A stretch of 57,384 nucleotides of DNA from a virus (IMGVR_UViG_3300028041_000098:1-57384), one strand, 5' to 3'; shown: positions 1-56,819, counted from the first letter of the stretch. Numbers and translations are program-made. Notes: a model not told the origin generated them from the letters alone.

Positions 1-1284
1 TCACGTCAGATCCGTTTCGGCGCCGTCGAGCGACCCCTCGATTTCCTGAGGAATTTTCGAGGTGTCGGAGGCGAGTACCCCCGGTTCCTGCCCCGGCTTG
101 CCGAACGCCGCCGTGAGGATCTCGTCGAGGTTCAGCACCTGGCCCAGCTCCTCGAGCACGGGCCGCTGCGTGTGGGGCCGCATGTGGGTGTACCCCTGCG
201 TCGTCAGGATGTCCTGTCCCATCGTCGCGGCCCGCTGCGCCTCGGTGAGGTACGGCACCTCAGCGAGCAGCGTCGCCGCGGTGTGCCGGATCGTGTGGAA
301 GGTGACGCCGCCCTTCAGCAGGCCGTACGTGAGGTCGGCCGCCTCGGCGCCGGCGCGGACGGATCCGCGAATCTCCTTGATCGGCTTCCCGCGATACGTG
401 ACGACGTACGCCTGGTCGCGCCGGCGATCGCGTTGGAGCACCTGCAGGAACGCGCGCAGTTGTCGTGAGATCGGCACGACCAGCGGCTGCTGCGTCAGGC
501 CAACCGTCTTGTGTTCCGGCACGGTGATGAACGTGAACGCCGGGTCGAAGCTGGTATCCCAGCGCAGGCCCAGCACGTTTTGCAGTCGCAGCTTCGGCGC
601 GAGTGCGGCGATCGCGATCGCGATCTGCGCGTGCCGCGGCGCGTGCTGCAGCCAGCGGCGGAGCTCGTCGGCCGTCACGGCGACCCGTTTCGTGCGGACG
701 CTGTACCGTTCCACTTTCGCGAAGGGGTTTTCCGTCACGCCGGTCTTCTTCGCGAACTGCGGGCGCATCGCCGTCTTGTACAGGCGGCTCATGATGCTGA
801 TGTAGTGATTGCGCGTCTGCGGGCTGACGGCGCGCTTCGGTCCCTTGCCGGTCCCGACGCGTCGCGCGTCCATCCACTGTTCGAACTTCGTGATCCACGA
901 CGGATCGAGGATCGGATCCGCCATCCGGAGATCGTGGTACGGCTCGCCCTCGATGGGCGGGTTCTTCGGATCGCGCCCTGACGGCCGGCGACCCCAGAAC
1001 CGCAGGACGACGCGGAGCAGGTCGTCGACGCGATCGAGGCGGCGGACCTTGCCCCGCTTTCGGATGTATTCGTAGTAGGTGGCCGCGAACTCCGTGATGT
1101 GCGGGCTGTGCTCCGCGAGCGTCGAGAGCCCGTGCGCGCGTCGGCGGACCTTCCGCTTCTCCTGTTCTTCGAACTCCTCCGCGTCTTCGCGGGTGAGCTG
1201 ACCGGTGGAGCCCTGATACACCTGGCCCTTGTAATAGAACTTATACCGCCAGGCGGCGCGATCCTTCTCCTTCCAGACCGTCAT
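1..1284 (-). CDS. int: Tyrosine recombinase / phage integrase
   Basis: Catalytic motifs LRLQN(R), HKT(K), FHTIRH (HxxR), QGY(Y); arm-binding-like N-terminus WRYKFYYKGQ; ATG at 1284 overlaps upstream stop (ATGA). Confidence 0.93.
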   Translation of the reverse strand: MTVWKEKDRAAWRYKFYYKGQVYQGSTGQLTREDAEEFEEQEKRKVRRRAHGLSTLAEHSPHITEFAATYYEYIRKRGKVRRLDRVDDLLRVVLRFWGRRPSGRDPKNPPIEGEPYHDLRMADPILDPSWITKFEQWMDARRVGTGKGPKRAVSPQTRNHYISIMSRLYKTAMRPQFAKKTGVTENPFAKVERYSVRTKRVAVTADELRRWLQHAPRHAQIAIAIAALAPKLRLQNVLGLRWDTSFDPAFTFITVPEHKTVGLTQQPLVVPISRQLRAFLQVLQRDRRRDQAYVVTYRGKPIKEIRGSVRAGAEAADLTYGLLKGGVTFHTIRHTAATLLAEVPYLTEAQRAATMGQDILTTQGYTHMRPHTQRPVLEELGQVLNLDEILTAAFGKPGQEPGVLASDTSKIPQEIEGSLDGAETDLT

Positions 1285-1553
1285 GATGACGACGACGATG
1301 CCACAGGATCCGTCCAGCCGAGGGCGAGTGCGGCCGCCTTCCACCGTTCGGCTGTGTCGAACACGTCCTCCTGGGAGCGGCATACCTGCGTTCGCCGCAC
1401 GTCGCCCGACGTTTCGAGGCGGAGCTCCCAGCCGAACTGGTGCGTGAATAGCCGGCAGACGGCCGTGCGCTCACCCTTCACCAGGCGGAAGTACTCGCCC
1501 TGGTCGAGCGGTTCGCCGTGCCAGTCGGGACGCTGAAGCACCTGCATCGCCAT
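1281..1553 (-). CDS. Small hypothetical protein (90 aa), coupled to integrase
   Basis: RBS GAGGTG upstream, ATGA overlap with int, protein-like composition. Confidence 0.75.
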   Translation of the reverse strand: MAMQVLQRPDWHGEPLDQGEYFRLVKGERTAVCRLFTHQFGWELRLETSGDVRRTQVCRSQEDVFDTAERWKAAALALGWTDPVASSSSS

Positions 1554-1983
1554 CGATCACCTCGTGTCGCCGCAGCCAGTCCAGTCGCCGACGGCAGCCG
1601 ACCGTCGGCCACGAGCGCAACGCGAGCTCGTAGAAGTGCATCGCGGCGTCGACATGGCCGCGGCGCTCCGCCAGCTCCCCAAGTTTCCGTTGCGCCTCGG
1701 CTCGGGTTTTTCGCTCGGCCGTCAGATCCAGGGCGAAGCCGCTCTCGGCGAGCGCACCGTGGAAATGCTCGAAGTACTCACGCAGCCGGTGCCCGTACTT
1801 GTTCAGGTGTTCGCGTTCCTGCGCCAGGATCTCCATCAGCGCGGCCACCGCGAGGCGGAGATCCGGATCGACCCCGATGGCCAATTCGACGGCCGGCTCC
1901 GGTTCGATGCCCGCTCGGCGCAGGAGGTCATCGGCCGTTGAGGGGCGCCGGCGAACCTGACGGACGCGCTCTGTCACGATCAC
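1471..1983 (-). CDS. Hypothetical protein with single TPR-like repeat
   Basis: AEAQRKLGELAERRGHVDAAMHFYELAL fits TPR consensus. Confidence 0.65.
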   Translation of the reverse strand: MIVTERVRQVRRRPSTADDLLRRAGIEPEPAVELAIGVDPDLRLAVAALMEILAQEREHLNKYGHRLREYFEHFHGALAESGFALDLTAERKTRAEAQRKLGELAERRGHVDAAMHFYELALRSWPTVGCRRRLDWLRRHEVIDGDAGASASRLARRTARPGRVLPPGEG

Positions 1984-2078
1984 CTGCTACGCTTCACTCT
2001 GCTACCCTCTCCCCGTATGGCCGAACGCGAGCGGATTCTCGACGTGATCGAGTCCTTGATCGTGCAGACGGAGGAATG

Positions 2079-2681
2079 ATGTACAACCGGCTCCGCCGTC
2101 TGTATAACGAGCTGTTCGCGCCGCCCCGCCGGCGTCGCCGTGTCCCCGCTGACGAACTGGAGGAACTCTTCGAAACCCACACGGCACCAGAACTCCTGGA
2201 GGAGCTCTTCGCGTTCGGGCAGTTGATGCTCGACGAGGTCGCCGGCCGCACCGTCGTCATCGAAGGCAAGGCGACGAGCGTCCTGGGCTGGACGACCGCG
2301 CTGCTGGCCCTGTTCGTGCTGCAACCGCCAACTCCCCTCGCGGCGCTCTCGCTGACCGAAGCCGTCCTCACTGCCCTCGGCGTGTCCGGCGCGATCGCCG
2401 CATTGATTGCCAGCGCGCTGGCGCTGCGCGTGCAGGACTGGGACTGGCCGAGTCAGCAGGACTGGCTCCGCTCGGCCATCTTCGATGACCCGACACTCCT
2501 GCGGCAGTACCACATCGTTTCGATGCTCGAGACGCACGAGGCGCACGCATGCGTGAACGAGAAGAAAGCCCGGGCGCTCAAGTTCGCTCAAGCGGGCCTG
2601 ATCCTCGCTGGCCTGTGTCTCGGGCTCCAGCTGGTGGCAGCGCTCGTCTTCCAATGGTGGACGGCGCCGCCACCCGGATAG
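2079..2681 (+). CDS. Three-TM membrane protein (PycTM/DUF5706-like architecture)
   Basis: GGAGG RBS; EGKATSVL before TM1, two adjacent TMs, soluble loop, NEKKARAL before TM3. Confidence 0.7.
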   Translation: MYNRLRRLYNELFAPPRRRRRVPADELEELFETHTAPELLEELFAFGQLMLDEVAGRTVVIEGKATSVLGWTTALLALFVLQPPTPLAALSLTEAVLTALGVSGAIAALIASALALRVQDWDWPSQQDWLRSAIFDDPTLLRQYHIVSMLETHEAHACVNEKKARALKFAQAGLILAGLCLGLQLVAALVFQWWTAPPPG

Positions 2682-2683
2682 AC

Positions 2684-2794
2684 CTACCCCTTCGACGGCC
2701 GAGGCGGAGGCGTCGGCTTCGGTCGCTGTGTTCCGGTTGAGGGTCCCTTCACGACGGTGTCCGGCCGCCGCGGCGGAATCTTCGACTTACTCAC
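2684..2794 (-). CDS. Pro-rich micropeptide B (36 aa, MSKSKIPPRRPDTVVKGPSTGTQRPKPTPPPRPSKG)
   Basis: Manual translation; GTGA start/stop overlap with peptide A; paralogous to A. Confidence 0.65.
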   Translation of the reverse strand: MSKSKIPPRRPDTVVKGPSTGTQRPKPTPPPRPSKG

Positions 2795-2922
2795 GACTTC
2801 TTCTCGTCCTGGTCGCGAGGCGGGGGCGGCGGCTGCGGCGTGGGAATCGTCCCTTCGACAATTGTGCGCTGGACCGTATCCGGCAGCCGCGCCGGAATCT
2901 TCGGCTTGCCCTTGTCAGCCAT
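2791..2922 (-). CDS. Pro-rich micropeptide A (43 aa, MADKGKPKIPARLPDTVQRTIVEGTIPTPQPPPPPRDQDEKKS)
   Basis: Manual translation; AAAGAGGA RBS before ATG; below ORF-track size cutoff. Confidence 0.7.
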   Translation of the reverse strand: MADKGKPKIPARLPDTVQRTIVEGTIPTPQPPPPPRDQDEKKS

Positions 2923-3024
2923 TGGCGTCCTCTTTCTTGAATCATCGCGCGGAAGATTGCAGCCTCCCCGCCGATCTGTGGGTCTCCCCCGGTTTCACAT
3001 ACTGGCGAGAATCTCAGCCTTCGC

Positions 3025-3591
3025 TTAGGCGCTACAACTCCACCCGGCTGTCTTTTCGACCATGTCGAATCCACGTACGTCAAAGGAACCTTCGGAGCCT
3101 TCGAACGGCTGTCCGAGTGAAAGGCGGTAGACCATGCGTCGGCTGCTTCGAAGAAGCGCTACGATGGCCTTCCCCGCCGCTGCAATCTGTGGCGCTCCAG
3201 GACTGCTTGTAAGCGTCTCGGCGTCAACGACACCGAGGATGAAATTTCCGTCTGCGTTCGAGCCGCCGATGTTCCTGATGAGTACTGCCTGCTCGATGTG
3301 GCGCAACGCGTAGAGCTCGGCGTCGGCCTTGTCGAATCTGATTTCGATTAGTGGTGGTCCAGACGTTCGCGTCGACTTTGGCAACGTAACGAACGCCACG
3401 TACTGATTGTTGTCGTTGCAAAACACCCGAAGTGATGCGGCCTTGTTCGAGGAGGCTAGCACCATGGTGGTGACCTTCTCATCTGTCATCGGATCGACGC
3501 TGCGCTGTACGCGCCATGCCGTCTGCGTCTGTGCAACGTTGATTTCCGCCGGGACGAGGCTAAGCATGAGAAGAGCTGGTGCCGCGCGCAT
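3025..3591 (-). CDS. Exported protein (signal peptide, W...DPMTD motif), lysogenic moron
   Basis: Hydrophobic N-terminus ending NVA-Q; more A/T-ending codons than flanks. Confidence 0.7.
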   Translation of the reverse strand: MRAAPALLMLSLVPAEINVAQTQTAWRVQRSVDPMTDEKVTTMVLASSNKAASLRVFCNDNNQYVAFVTLPKSTRTSGPPLIEIRFDKADAELYALRHIEQAVLIRNIGGSNADGNFILGVVDAETLTSSPGAPQIAAAGKAIVALLRSSRRMVYRLSLGQPFEGSEGSFDVRGFDMVEKTAGWSCSA

Positions 3592-3886
3592 CAGAGATCC
3601 CCTTTACAAGACGCAACGATGTCTGAACTTCGCTTGCCGCCGGCGAGCCCCGATGTGTCCGCTGATTCGTCAGCTCTTGGATCAAATCGTCGAACGCCTC
3701 GTGCGCTGCAGCCACCGCACCGCGGCGACGGTTGGCCGCGCGTACGAGCGACCGCAACAGCTCCGGCGCGACGATTTCAAGCCGGTCGAAGGCGCGCTGC
3801 GCTGCCCTGAGGTCTTTCACCAATTGCGCGTACTCAGGCCCGGATAGAGAGCTGCGGATCGTGACTTCCAGTTTGGTCTTGCTCAT
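3560..3886 (-). CDS. Hypothetical protein in repressor operon
   Basis: GAGGAGG RBS directly after repressor stop. Confidence 0.6.
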   Translation of the reverse strand: MSKTKLEVTIRSSLSGPEYAQLVKDLRAAQRAFDRLEIVAPELLRSLVRAANRRRGAVAAAHEAFDDLIQELTNQRTHRGSPAASEVQTSLRLVKGISDARGTSSSHA

Positions 3887-3894
3887 CGGCCTCC

Positions 3895-4434
3895 TCAGGC
3901 GCGGCGGCGCTCCCTAGCCGCAAGCCTGCCCTCGATCAACAGCTGGATGGCACTTCGCTCTTCGTCAGTCAATGACTGCCAGTCTTGGAGGAGTGTCGCC
4001 TCCGCTTCGTCCCGCGTCGGCTGCTTCGGCCACAGGTGCGTCGTCATGCCCATCAGCGTGCTGATTTCAGCGGTCAAGTTGAGCAGCCGCGTGACCTGGT
4101 CAGAGGACAGTTCTTCGACGATTACATGCTCGTCGTCACCAGGGCCGATCTCACGCAGCAACTGACGGAGCTCCGCGAGTTTGTCGTTGAGGTACTCGCC
4201 GCGAGCGATCTCCGCTCGGTCGTACTCCTCATCGACGCCGCGCAATAGATCACCGATGCTGCAGTTCAACGCCTTCGCGAGTTTGAATAGGGTGGGCGTT
4301 TCCGGCAGGCCACGCTTGTCGTTCTCCCACGCGGATACGACCGACGGAGCAACCCCAATCTTCTTCGCGAGCTGTCCGGCACGCATGGCGCGCCCCATTC
4401 GCAACCTGCGTACGTTCGCACCGAAGCTCGCCAC
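3895..4434 (-). CDS. CI-like XRE HTH repressor (no S24 peptidase domain visible)
   Basis: FGANVRRLR...QLAKKIGVAPSVVSAWENDKRGLP...LAKALNCSIGDLL; divergent from cro-like gene; GTG 4434 inferred from promoter position. Confidence 0.9.
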   Translation of the reverse strand: MASFGANVRRLRMGRAMRAGQLAKKIGVAPSVVSAWENDKRGLPETPTLFKLAKALNCSIGDLLRGVDEEYDRAEIARGEYLNDKLAELRQLLREIGPGDDEHVIVEELSSDQVTRLLNLTAEISTLMGMTTHLWPKQPTRDEAEATLLQDWQSLTDEERSAIQLLIEGRLAARERRRA

Positions 4435-4441
4435 GCAGAGA

Positions 4442-4470
4442 ACGATAGCCCCAGAGCTATAAGCGCGCAA
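4442..4470 (-). promoter_or_regulatory. Repressor promoter, probably leaderless
   Basis: TTGCGC-17 nt-TATCGT-7 nt-GTG on minus strand, no SD. Confidence 0.6.
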
Positions 4471-4479
4471 TATTTTTTC

Positions 4480-4598
4480 GCCTGTAAGTTCCTGTAACGA
4501 CGCCACTTAGCCTGAAAGGTTGCGACAGCCTGAACTCACAGGCTATTTTTTCGCTTGACTGCTACGAACGGCGGCAGCAAACTTCGCCTGTGAGTTCA
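4480..4598. promoter_or_regulatory. Operator array of genetic switch
   Basis: Palindrome AGCCTG-N6-CAGGCT at 4527-4544; related GCCTGTAAGTTC (4480), AGCCTGAA (4509), GCCTGTGAGTTCA (4586). Confidence 0.7.
4555..4583 (+). promoter_or_regulatory. Early lytic promoter, probably leaderless
   Basis: TTGACT-17 nt-CAAACT-6 nt-GTG(4590). Confidence 0.55.
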
Positions 4599-4883
4599 CA
4601 CCAGCAGCGCCGACCACTTACCGCTGAACAGCTGGAGGCACTTCGTGCCGTGCCCCTTGGCGCGATGCCAAACAAGATCCGAATCGCTCTCGCGCTCGTC
4701 AAGGCGCGACAGGCCGACGTCGCCGAGGCCACGGGAATCCCGGCCCCGAACGTCAGCAACATCGTGAACGGCCGTCCGGTGATGCTCGACACGGCCAGAA
4801 AGCTCGCGGAGTTCTTCGGCTGCCAGATCGAAGACCTGTTCCCTGGCACTACCGAAGATCGCCGTCAGCGGGTGAGCGCCTGA
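4590..4883 (+). CDS. Cro-like XRE HTH regulator
   Basis: RQADVAEATGIPAPNVSNIVNG...ARKLAEFFGCQIEDLF. Confidence 0.88.
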   Translation: MSSHQQRRPLTAEQLEALRAVPLGAMPNKIRIALALVKARQADVAEATGIPAPNVSNIVNGRPVMLDTARKLAEFFGCQIEDLFPGTTEDRRQRVSA

Positions 4884-55887: not shown

Positions 55888-56268
55888 ATGCGTGCGCTCC
55901 TCTTCGCCGGCGCTCTCCTGGGTCTGGCCTTCAGCCAGCCCGCGGCGTCGTCCGCCCAGATCCCCGCTGCAGCGGTGACACCGGCAGCCGAGGACGGGCG
56001 GACCACGGCGAGCGGGGGACCCATGGACGAGCAGCTCTTTAAGTACGCACTGACCCAGGGAGGGCTGACGATCGTCTGCCTCGTGCTGTTCTGGTGGATT
56101 CAGCGCGAACACCGCCGGCAGGACGCGGCGAAGGACGAACGGATGCAGATCCTCGTCGTCCTGGTGGAGAAAAACACGGCGGCCCTCACGGCGTCTGAGG
56201 CGACCAACGCGCGGCTCGCGCGCGCGATCGAGACCACGCGGCTGTTGCCGCCTGGGGCGACCGTATGA
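55888..56268 (+). CDS. Holin-like protein (BhlA/UviB-like core) with N-terminal signal-like extension
   Basis: MDEQLFKYALTQGG + one TM + coiled coil; ATGA overlap with lysozyme. Confidence 0.7.
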   Translation: MRALLFAGALLGLAFSQPAASSAQIPAAAVTPAAEDGRTTASGGPMDEQLFKYALTQGGLTIVCLVLFWWIQREHRRQDAAKDERMQILVVLVEKNTAALTASEATNARLARAIETTRLLPPGATV

Positions 56269-56819
56269 CACCGCAGGACTACGCGGCGCTCGAGGCGCAG
56301 CTGATCCAGCACGAAGGCCTCCGCCTGACGCTGTACCTGTGCACGAGCGGCAAGCTGACGTGGGGCGTCGGGTACAACGTGTCGGACCGCGGACTGATCC
56401 CGCTGCAGCGGGCGCTTGGCCGCAGCGTCACGATCGAGGATCTGCGCGCCGGGCGCCTGACCCGCGAGGATGCCCTGACGGTGCTCCGGAGAGACATCCC
56501 CACGTTCGAGGCGCAGATCCGCGAGCGCCTGCCCCGGTACGACCAGCTCGGGGCGGTCCGGCAGCGGGCGATCATCGACTTCGTGTTCAACCTGGGCGCC
56601 ACCCGCGCCGCCGCGTTCACCAGCGCGATCGCTGCGGGTCGACTCGCGCTCGCGCAGACGGATCCGCGCCTGGCGCAGGCCTGCTGGGACGCCTGCGCGT
56701 TTCACATGATGGATTCGCTCTGGGCGCGTCAGGTCGACGACGGGCTCGGGGGGAAGCGCGGTCGCGCCGATCGCGTCTGTCACATGATCCGCACCGGCGT
56801 GGACCCGGGGCCGCGATGA
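56265..56819 (+). CDS. Endolysin, T4-like GH24 lysozyme
   Basis: HEGLRLTLYLCTSGKLTWGVG (E-x8-C-x5-T), FNLG, DSLWARQV. Confidence 0.92.
   Translation: MTPQDYAALEAQLIQHEGLRLTLYLCTSGKLTWGVGYNVSDRGLIPLQRALGRSVTIEDLRAGRLTREDALTVLRRDIPTFEAQIRERLPRYDQLGAVRQRAIIDFVFNLGATRAAAFTSAIAAGRLALAQTDPRLAQACWDACAFHMMDSLWARQVDDGLGGKRGRADRVCHMIRTGVDPGPR

Follow-up and report, generated by a model that had tools for sequence, protein, structure and literature searches.

The question raised by positions 2079-2922 of IMGVR_UViG_3300028041_000098:1-57384 is whether two short proline-rich open reading frames (ORFs), here called pep1 and pep2, form a functional unit with the gene on which they converge, which encodes a three-transmembrane (3-TM) protein, or whether the three are simply neighbours. 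The record is an IMG/VR provirus of 57,384 bases, referred to throughout as the window, with a G+C content of 68.7% and a completeness estimate of 60%. An earlier note on this DNA had proposed a peptide-controlled membrane toxin or defence module, a peptide signal, or precursors like those of ribosomally synthesised and post-translationally modified peptides (RiPPs). The reading that is slightly favoured here, with a chance put a little above even, is that a young, lineage-specific mini-gene and a gene resembling those of the PycTM effector family are accessory genes packed into the gap between the integrase (int) and repressor (cI) genes.

The tandem duplication of pep1 and pep2

Both ORFs lie on the minus strand, and the coordinates and strand given for them in the earlier note were found unchanged in the sequence (Table 1). 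The GTG of pep2 overlaps the TGA stop of pep1 as GTGA at 2791-2794. The motif that had been read in both, K-I-P-x-R-x-P-D-T-V...G-T...P-x-P-x-P-P-P-R, was recovered on alignment with 53% identity and 19 invariant columns, and BLASTP of pep1 against pep2 gave an expect value (E) of 5e-4, which applies to a single comparison. In the DNA the likeness falls into two repeat blocks, whose offsets between the copies, 119 and 116, differ by 3 nt, so that the same reading frame is kept in both copies. When a 27-nt consensus of block 1 was searched against the window, the two matches were these copies themselves, and 0/100 shuffles gave any match. It is clear that pep1 and pep2 are a tandem DNA duplication with a unit of ~117-119 bp, far beyond chance. 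A search of the six frames of the window for additional copies of the peptide was negative. A single frameshifted pep1-pep2 gene was considered and rejected, as the ribosome would have to shift by -1 where the sequence is not slippery, and the junction reads identically in an independent contig.

Whether the duplicated unit is translated is a separate matter. An open frame of 36-43 codons is no evidence in itself, because at the G+C content of the window several other frames across 2684-2922 are also open. Coding potential was scored with a codon log-odds model trained on 26 long ORFs beyond position 4600 (30,375 nt), and the spurious control set consisted of 67 ORFs of 30-60 amino acids (aa) lying out of frame inside the training genes. 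pep1 scored +21.0 bits in its own frame and -9.2 or less in the other five, a score that was reached by 0/67 spurious ORFs (maximum 19.1); true-frame windows of 43 codons had a mean of 28.4 bits and a 25th percentile of 22.3. Per codon the pep1 score equals that of the 3-TM gene. Good ribosome-binding sites and a GTGA coupling overlap had been claimed for the pair. The overlap stood, and so did the ribosome-binding site of pep1, where AGAGGA is ideally spaced, but pep2 has at best an AGGA 12 nt upstream. A core resembling the Shine-Dalgarno (SD) sequence preceded 18 of 38 confident starts, compared with 322 of all 2892 ATG/GTG positions (11.1%). Both ORFs had further been noted as absent from the ORF track. 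In public annotation pep2 is likewise never called, and its exact sequence is absent from a collection of 15 billion proteins, but pep1 has been called as a protein, letter for letter, in records of NCBI, JGI, ENA and Logan. Codon usage, the ATG, the ribosome-binding site and independent annotation make it probable, with good confidence, that pep1 is a real gene. The pep2 codon score was -0.6 bits, a value reached by 11 of the 67 spurious ORFs. Same-frame paralogy and the GTGA overlap, taken with the poor ribosome-binding site, leave pep2 ambiguous, and the chance that it too is a gene is judged to fall a little short of even.

The case for translation has to be weighed against the view that neither ORF is translated and that the pair is the 3' end of the repressor operon, duplicated and non-coding, with blocks kept for a reason lying in the DNA or RNA. 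A possible example of such a reason is a pair of protein-binding sites of the form TCCGSC-N6-GSCGGA placed 119 bp apart. This 18-bp inverted repeat (6-N6-6) is present at 2760-2777 and 2879-2896, inside both copies of block 1, and has no other occurrence in the window (0.13 expected). Open frames are cheap at this base composition, no homologues of the peptides are found, and the substitutions that separate the two copies are not clearly biased by codon position (6 synonymous, 5 non-synonymous), all of which such a view would accommodate. It fits less well with a pep1 codon score that is gene-like and lies above all 67 spurious small ORFs, with an ATG preceded by an SD sequence at the proper spacing, and with block offsets that differ by exactly 3 nt and so keep the frame. 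The inverted repeat is perhaps no more than a by-product of CCG (Pro) and CGG (Arg) codons, which as mutual reverse complements would produce it automatically, and the surroundings of the cI/cro promoters contain no additional copy of the site. A non-coding origin for both ORFs is considered rather unlikely.

The sequencing runs listed for comparison were seven of soil DNA and none of RNA, and contigs from four of these were compared with the window. Pieces longer than 100 nt were identical to the window bar two differences, both outside the peptides, one being a single letter in an X4 piece (2405-2648) and the other a 4-base insertion at 1850. A contig from X3 covering 2539-2878 spans pep2 and most of pep1 and is identical to the window; cover is thin over 2879-3031. 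Shorter pieces that differ at 4-5 letters appear to come from other organisms.

Searches for relatives of the peptides gave a consistent result. A profile of both, run against 1.84 billion representative proteins, returned pep1 itself only at E <= 1e-3, with the caveat that relatives of ~25-35 bits fall below the thresholds of that search and very diverged homologues could be missed. A word-based search of the 19-76-aa proteins in a 5.8-billion-protein collection produced one candidate, again pep1 itself, and an ESM Atlas search with pep1 gave no usable match. When three DNA collections were scanned with back-translated KIPxRxPDTV, the viral contigs yielded 0 loci, the metagenome contigs 29 and the genome contigs 30. 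None of these loci combined a start codon with a Pro-rich tail and none had a 3-TM relative (all-frame profile search, E <= 1); they look like chance matches inside other frames, untranslated regions (UTRs) or long ORFs. One look-alike (L039) was discarded as a relative when a reading of its frames showed the 5' UTR of another gene. By sequence comparison both peptides are orphans, with no detectable relative in the collections searched.

A separate observation concerns three soil metagenome contigs that share an intergenic, TTG-start ORF of 25 aa (L004:283-311, L028:3490-3518 and L030:84-112, all on the minus strand), which begins MSKIPRRRPDTVSK and reads in full MSKIPRRRPDTVSKTDTKEPQSSKPKE. 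At the start its likeness to pep2 extends past the motif searched for, and AGGAGG and another ORF follow it. The likeness is probably a chance match.

The suggestions of RiPP-like precursors and of a peptide signal did not survive these comparisons. The ORFs are short and duplicated, as in some precursor gene sets, and a secreted, arbitrium-like communication peptide might be imagined, but pep1 and pep2 have no relatives and lack both Cys and a hydrophobic N-terminus; over 19 residues the hydropathy peaks at 0.04 in pep1 and at -0.96 in pep2. Neither peptide contains a hydrophobic segment, hence there is no signal peptide of the arbitrium AimP type. No modifying enzyme, protease or transporter family was found among the neighbours or the 57 window proteins, for which the Pfam scans comprised 9 ORFs near the finding (E <= 0.1) and 48 more picked by codon-position G+C (E <= 1e-5). 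Either role is regarded as extremely improbable.

The 3-TM protein and the PycTM family

The 200-aa protein encoded opposite the peptides has hydrophobic segments at about 74-92, 92-118 and 169-194, and its AlphaFold2 (AF2) model has helices at 37-81, 92-116 and 138-195, with a predicted local distance difference test score (pLDDT) of 71.9. Four homologues at 49-60% identity were found in 5.8 billion proteins (P0002-P0005), all from Logan or ENA assemblies (longest contigs 6.7, 21.2, 14.7 and 1.5 kb), and in their alignment the core is strongly conserved. The protein belongs to no Pfam, PHROG or PADLOC family, and the PF18967 model searched against the six frames of the window gave nothing at E <= 10.

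The layout of the protein had been said to recall the PycTM/DUF5706 membrane effectors, and this likeness proved well founded. In the ESM Atlas a feature match to PycTM clusters scored 0.94 with 216 of 256 features shared, and a structure match to a PycTM cluster had a TM-score of 0.76/0.80 over 167 residues, which meets the bar for a name. Of 401 Actinomycetota genomes sampled, 19 carried bona fide PF18967 genes, at 25 places in total and in every case above the curated cut-off, and 18 of the 25 were used for a PycTM alignment (the first-start ORFs of the remaining seven, excluded from it, were either >205 aa or 112 aa long). An hhalign comparison of the 3-TM family (5 sequences) with these 18 gave a probability of 92.1%, E 6.3e-7 and a score of 47.6 over 136 columns, whereas the reversed template scored 17.6 and 20 column shuffles <=20.1. 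The invariant PycTM Lys before the first transmembrane segment (TM1) aligns with K64 of the E-G-K-A-T-S motif, and the second invariant Lys falls one column from K162/K163. The hhalign match, set against its controls, identifies the 3-TM protein at the level of sequence profiles as a divergent member of the PycTM family lying below the Pfam threshold.

Searches of other kinds were negative. Foldseek of the AF2 model against BFVD and PDB gave nothing at E <= 0.001, and a sequence profile search of PDB gave nothing meaningful. Relatives were sought with the single protein and with the family alignment in viral, genome and metagenome contigs and none were found; a set of 50,697 phage records likewise gave no match, either to 1984-3030 by blastn or to the 3-TM protein by tblastn. 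An identity as holin was considered and is unlikely, as the gene for lysozyme (56265-56819) is found at the opposite end of the window.

Immediately before the 3-TM gene, at 2017..2079 on the plus strand, is a candidate ORF of 20 aa, acidic in composition (MAERERILDVIESLIVQTEE), whose TGA and the ATG of the 3-TM gene have one base in common (TGATG). It scores +14.4 bits on codon usage, or 0.72 per codon, the best of six frames. It may be a coupled upstream mini-gene or a leader and, by position, is a better candidate for a regulator of the 3-TM gene than are the convergent peptides.

Pycsar is described in PMC11224242 as a cyclase, PycC, combined with an effector that is either PycTM or PycTIR; in the same account cyclic pyrimidines activate PycTM, and the resulting disruption of membrane integrity leads to abortive infection. 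A two-gene Pycsar is described as typical in PMC13069673. In the window the 57 ORFs scanned included no cyclase match, whether to PF00211 or to another family, with the proviso that the provirus is only ~60% complete and that a host cyclase is possible. The neighbourhoods of the bona fide PF18967 genes were scanned through 150 of 169 candidate frames at 22 of the 25 loci (L083-L085 left out), and PF00211 was present within 1.5 kb (E <= 1e-6) in one of the 22, L063 alone, although divergent cyclases were perhaps missed. That 21 of 22 Actinomycetota loci are without a recognisable cyclase indicates that the Pfam family is wider than Pycsar systems.

The same scan also gave information on the genomic surroundings of the family. 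At L078 the PycTM gene stands directly behind an S24 helix-turn-helix (HTH) repressor gene, an arrangement from which it is evident that the PycTM family does occur in the immunity regions of mobile elements. At L067 and L069 the PycTM gene follows a DUF6284 gene, and there is also a GntR regulator in L067 and a sigma-70 region 4 protein in L069.

Convergence of the peptides on the 3-TM gene

The stop of pep2 (2684-2686) and the TAG of the 3-TM gene (2679-2681) are separated by 2 bp, as the earlier note had observed. No terminator-like site was found between the convergent genes, no RNA structure there exceeded that of shuffles (z = 0.5 and -1.16), and no Rfam family was found in the region (best E 0.12). 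With the stops 2 bp apart and neither a terminator-like site nor a stable hairpin between them, the transcripts of the 3-TM gene and of the peptides probably overlap at their 3' ends.

Polyproline runs need elongation factor P (EF-P) for efficient translation, and pep1 and pep2 carry five and three consecutive Pro respectively, in both cases shortly before the stop. It is conceivable, then, that the two are regulatory ORFs in which PPPPP and PPP stall ribosomes near the end of the operon and tune how far the lysogenic transcript reads through antisense to the 3-TM gene, in which case translation itself would count and its product would not; the lack of a terminator between the convergent genes would suit such a device. 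However, the N-terminal KIPxRxPDTV block is as conserved as the Pro run, and a pure stalling element would not need it. Regulation by stalling is thought unlikely.

A direct role for the peptides was among the proposals of the earlier note, and the evidence that has accumulated is largely unfavourable to it. According to this proposal one or both peptides would bind and restrain, or else trigger, the PycTM-like protein, forming a toxin or defence pair made from convergent promoters. The 2-bp spacing of the stops is in keeping with it, and so would be expression of the peptides in the lysogen, should they belong to the cI operon. The 3-TM protein does fall within an effector family, and as no cyclase was found in the 57 window ORFs some other regulator would be needed. 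This last argument is countered by the 21 of 22 sampled PF18967 loci that are cyclase-less, which means that a missing cyclase needs no special partner. Moreover, a peptide profile run against the six frames of the 25 bona fide PycTM loci found no similar small ORF within 1.5 kb (best E 0.85), the peptides are without any relatives, and pep2, the copy nearest to the 3-TM gene, is weakly supported as coding sequence. Adjacency is the sole evidence for a link between the peptides and the 3-TM gene, and a peptide-controlled module is held to be distinctly unlikely. Less probable again is a specific form of it, a cyclase-independent, PycTM-like pore gated by prophage polyproline micropeptides instead of a cyclic nucleotide, in which the lysogen would obtain the peptides from the repressor operon and their loss or titration at superinfection or induction would release the effector.

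The slightly favoured reading, that of accessory genes sharing the int-cI gap, accounts for the same arrangement without a dedicated peptide-effector pair. pep1, perhaps together with pep2 through GTGA coupling, would be a young, lineage-specific, cytoplasmic mini-protein, basic and Pro-rich, which the lysogen would produce from the last part of the repressor operon. The peptides would stand beside the PycTM-like gene because both are accessory genes packed into the gap, and any coupling between them would more likely be transcriptional, by convergent interference or antisense, than through peptide binding. The PycTM-like protein itself would most likely act as a membrane-disrupting effector of abortive infection or exclusion, as described for the family.

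Several observations weigh against this reading. Membership of pep1 in the repressor operon is inferred from orientation only, and a 102-bp gap precedes pep1. Only 3% of true 36-codon windows score as low as pep2, which contains many rare codons. The conservation evidence for the peptides consists of the two copies alone, and over their 22 conserved codons the lean of the 6 synonymous and 5 non-synonymous changes to constraint is not significant; the contigs of the four runs, being essentially identical, give no polymorphism signal on the peptides. The PF18967 Pfam model (gathering threshold 27.2 bits) has no match at E <= 10 to the 3-TM protein or its four homologues. Finally, the 2-bp convergent gap is unusually tight and could reflect a functional link.

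Prophage setting and comparison with known systems

The block does lie between integrase and repressor, as had been claimed, a position borne out by the domain matches of the two flanking genes and by the presence of a Cro-like gene beyond the repressor (Table 1).

Table 1. Features of the duplicated peptide region and its surroundings, in coordinates of the window
Feature	Position	Strand	Remarks
pep1	2791..2922	-	ATG start; 43 aa; Pro-rich; isoelectric point (pI) 9.4; five consecutive Pro
pep2	2684..2794	-	GTG start; 36 aa; basic, Pro-rich; pI 12.0; diverged copy of pep1
Shine-Dalgarno-like AGAGGA	2928..2933	-	5 nt before pep1 ATG
Repeat block 1, pep2 copy (reference)	2753..2788		encodes K-x-K-I-P-x-R-x-P-D-T-V
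Repeat block 1, pep1 copy	2872..2907		36 nt; 86% identity to 2753-2788; spacing 119
Repeat block 2, pep2 copy	2700..2722		encodes P-x-P-x-P-P-P-R
Repeat block 2, pep1 copy	2816..2838		23 nt; 87% identity; spacing 116
3-TM gene	2079..2681	+	200 aa; GGAGGA 3 nt before ATG; stop TAG 2679-2681
Tyrosine integrase	1..1284	-	PF00589 1.7e-6; PF13102 1.3e-3; codon-position G+C.67/.46/.88; stop at window edge
90-aa ORF, unassigned	1281..1553	-	downstream of 170-aa ORF, upstream of int; codon score +22.7 bits, best of six frames
170-aa ORF, unassigned	1471..1983	-	divergent from 3-TM gene; TPR matches sub-threshold only, E 0.03-0.04
188-aa ORF	3025..3591	-	phrog_1848 at 1.7e-5, function not assigned; hydrophobic residues 2-17; third-position G+C (GC3) 0.66
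108-aa ORF, unassigned	3560..3886	-	between repressor and 188-aa ORF; called protein in public records
cI-like HTH repressor	3895..4506	-	PF01381 1.3e-11; first gene of minus-strand run ending in pep1 and pep2
Cro-like HTH gene	4590..4883	+	PF13443 4.7e-11; divergent from repressor

The annotated genes show a temperate, siphovirus-like prophage from soil. Past the Cro-like gene the Pfam scans identified an HNH endonuclease, a PD-(D/E)XK nuclease, ParB, DUF5131 and a methylase, and the last genes of the window are those for terminase, portal protein, tail tube protein, a 1122-aa ORF and the lysozyme. The terminase is at most 34% identical to any terminase of the 50,697 phage records, hence the prophage has no close cultured relative.

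Of the genes within the gap, the 188-aa ORF lies directly upstream of pep1 on the same strand, has a GC3 below that of the phage backbone and is likely an exported accessory protein of the lysogen; used as a query for related prophages, it found none in viral contigs. The 90-aa ORF next to int has no Pfam, PHROG or PADLOC family and is a called protein in public records. The 170-aa ORF has a codon score of +13.2 bits, approximately equal to that of the +0 frame (+11.9, with 2 stops), and with this start it has no exact counterpart in the 15-billion-protein collection. It is inside this ORF that the 4-base insertion behind 1850 falls, in one contig of run X3 (depth 2.3 of 9.0), where it would cause a frameshift in a minority variant. 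Overall, the 2079-2922 block is a moderately ordinary prophage accessory region, best read as lying at the accessory edge of the immunity genes.

What the locus contributes depends on which of its parts is considered. A tiny orphan 3-TM family, with 5 members in 5.8 billion proteins, is now placed within the PycTM family on profile evidence, and a young, duplicated and probably translated mini-gene is documented at the tail of a repressor operon. Were it true that the peptides control the PycTM-like protein, this would constitute a new form of regulation for a widespread class of abortive-infection effector and an example of micro-proteins acting in phage immunity.

Among known systems the closest comparison is with PycTM (PF18967, formerly DUF5706). 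The 3-TM protein shares with it a length of ~200 aa, a cytoplasmic N-terminal helix running into TM1 and an acidic-x-K-A-S/T motif before TM1, followed by TM2, a cytoplasmic helical insert and TM3, a layout of ~150-200 aa in the family that is borne out here by the AF2 helices and the hydropathy. It differs in lying below the Pfam model, in belonging to a very small family with 4 relatives in 5.8 billion proteins, and in being encoded in a prophage between int and cI; in contrast to Pycsar, no PycC was found among the ORFs scanned.

For the peptides, proline-rich antimicrobial peptides and SH3-ligand-like PxxPxR motifs offer no more than a lead. pep1 and pep2 are likewise short, basic and Pro/Arg-rich, with PxxPxR in both copies, but there is neither a sequence relationship nor an export signal.

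The arrangement of the genes invites comparison with operons of the lambda cI-rexA-rexB type, in which accessory genes expressed in the lysogen lie downstream of the phage repressor. Here the tail of the operon is an orphan pair of mini-ORFs without a known family, and the membrane protein is encoded on the opposite strand and converges on the operon, whereas the position of the accessory genes, following the repressor on the same strand within the immunity region, is shared with lambda.

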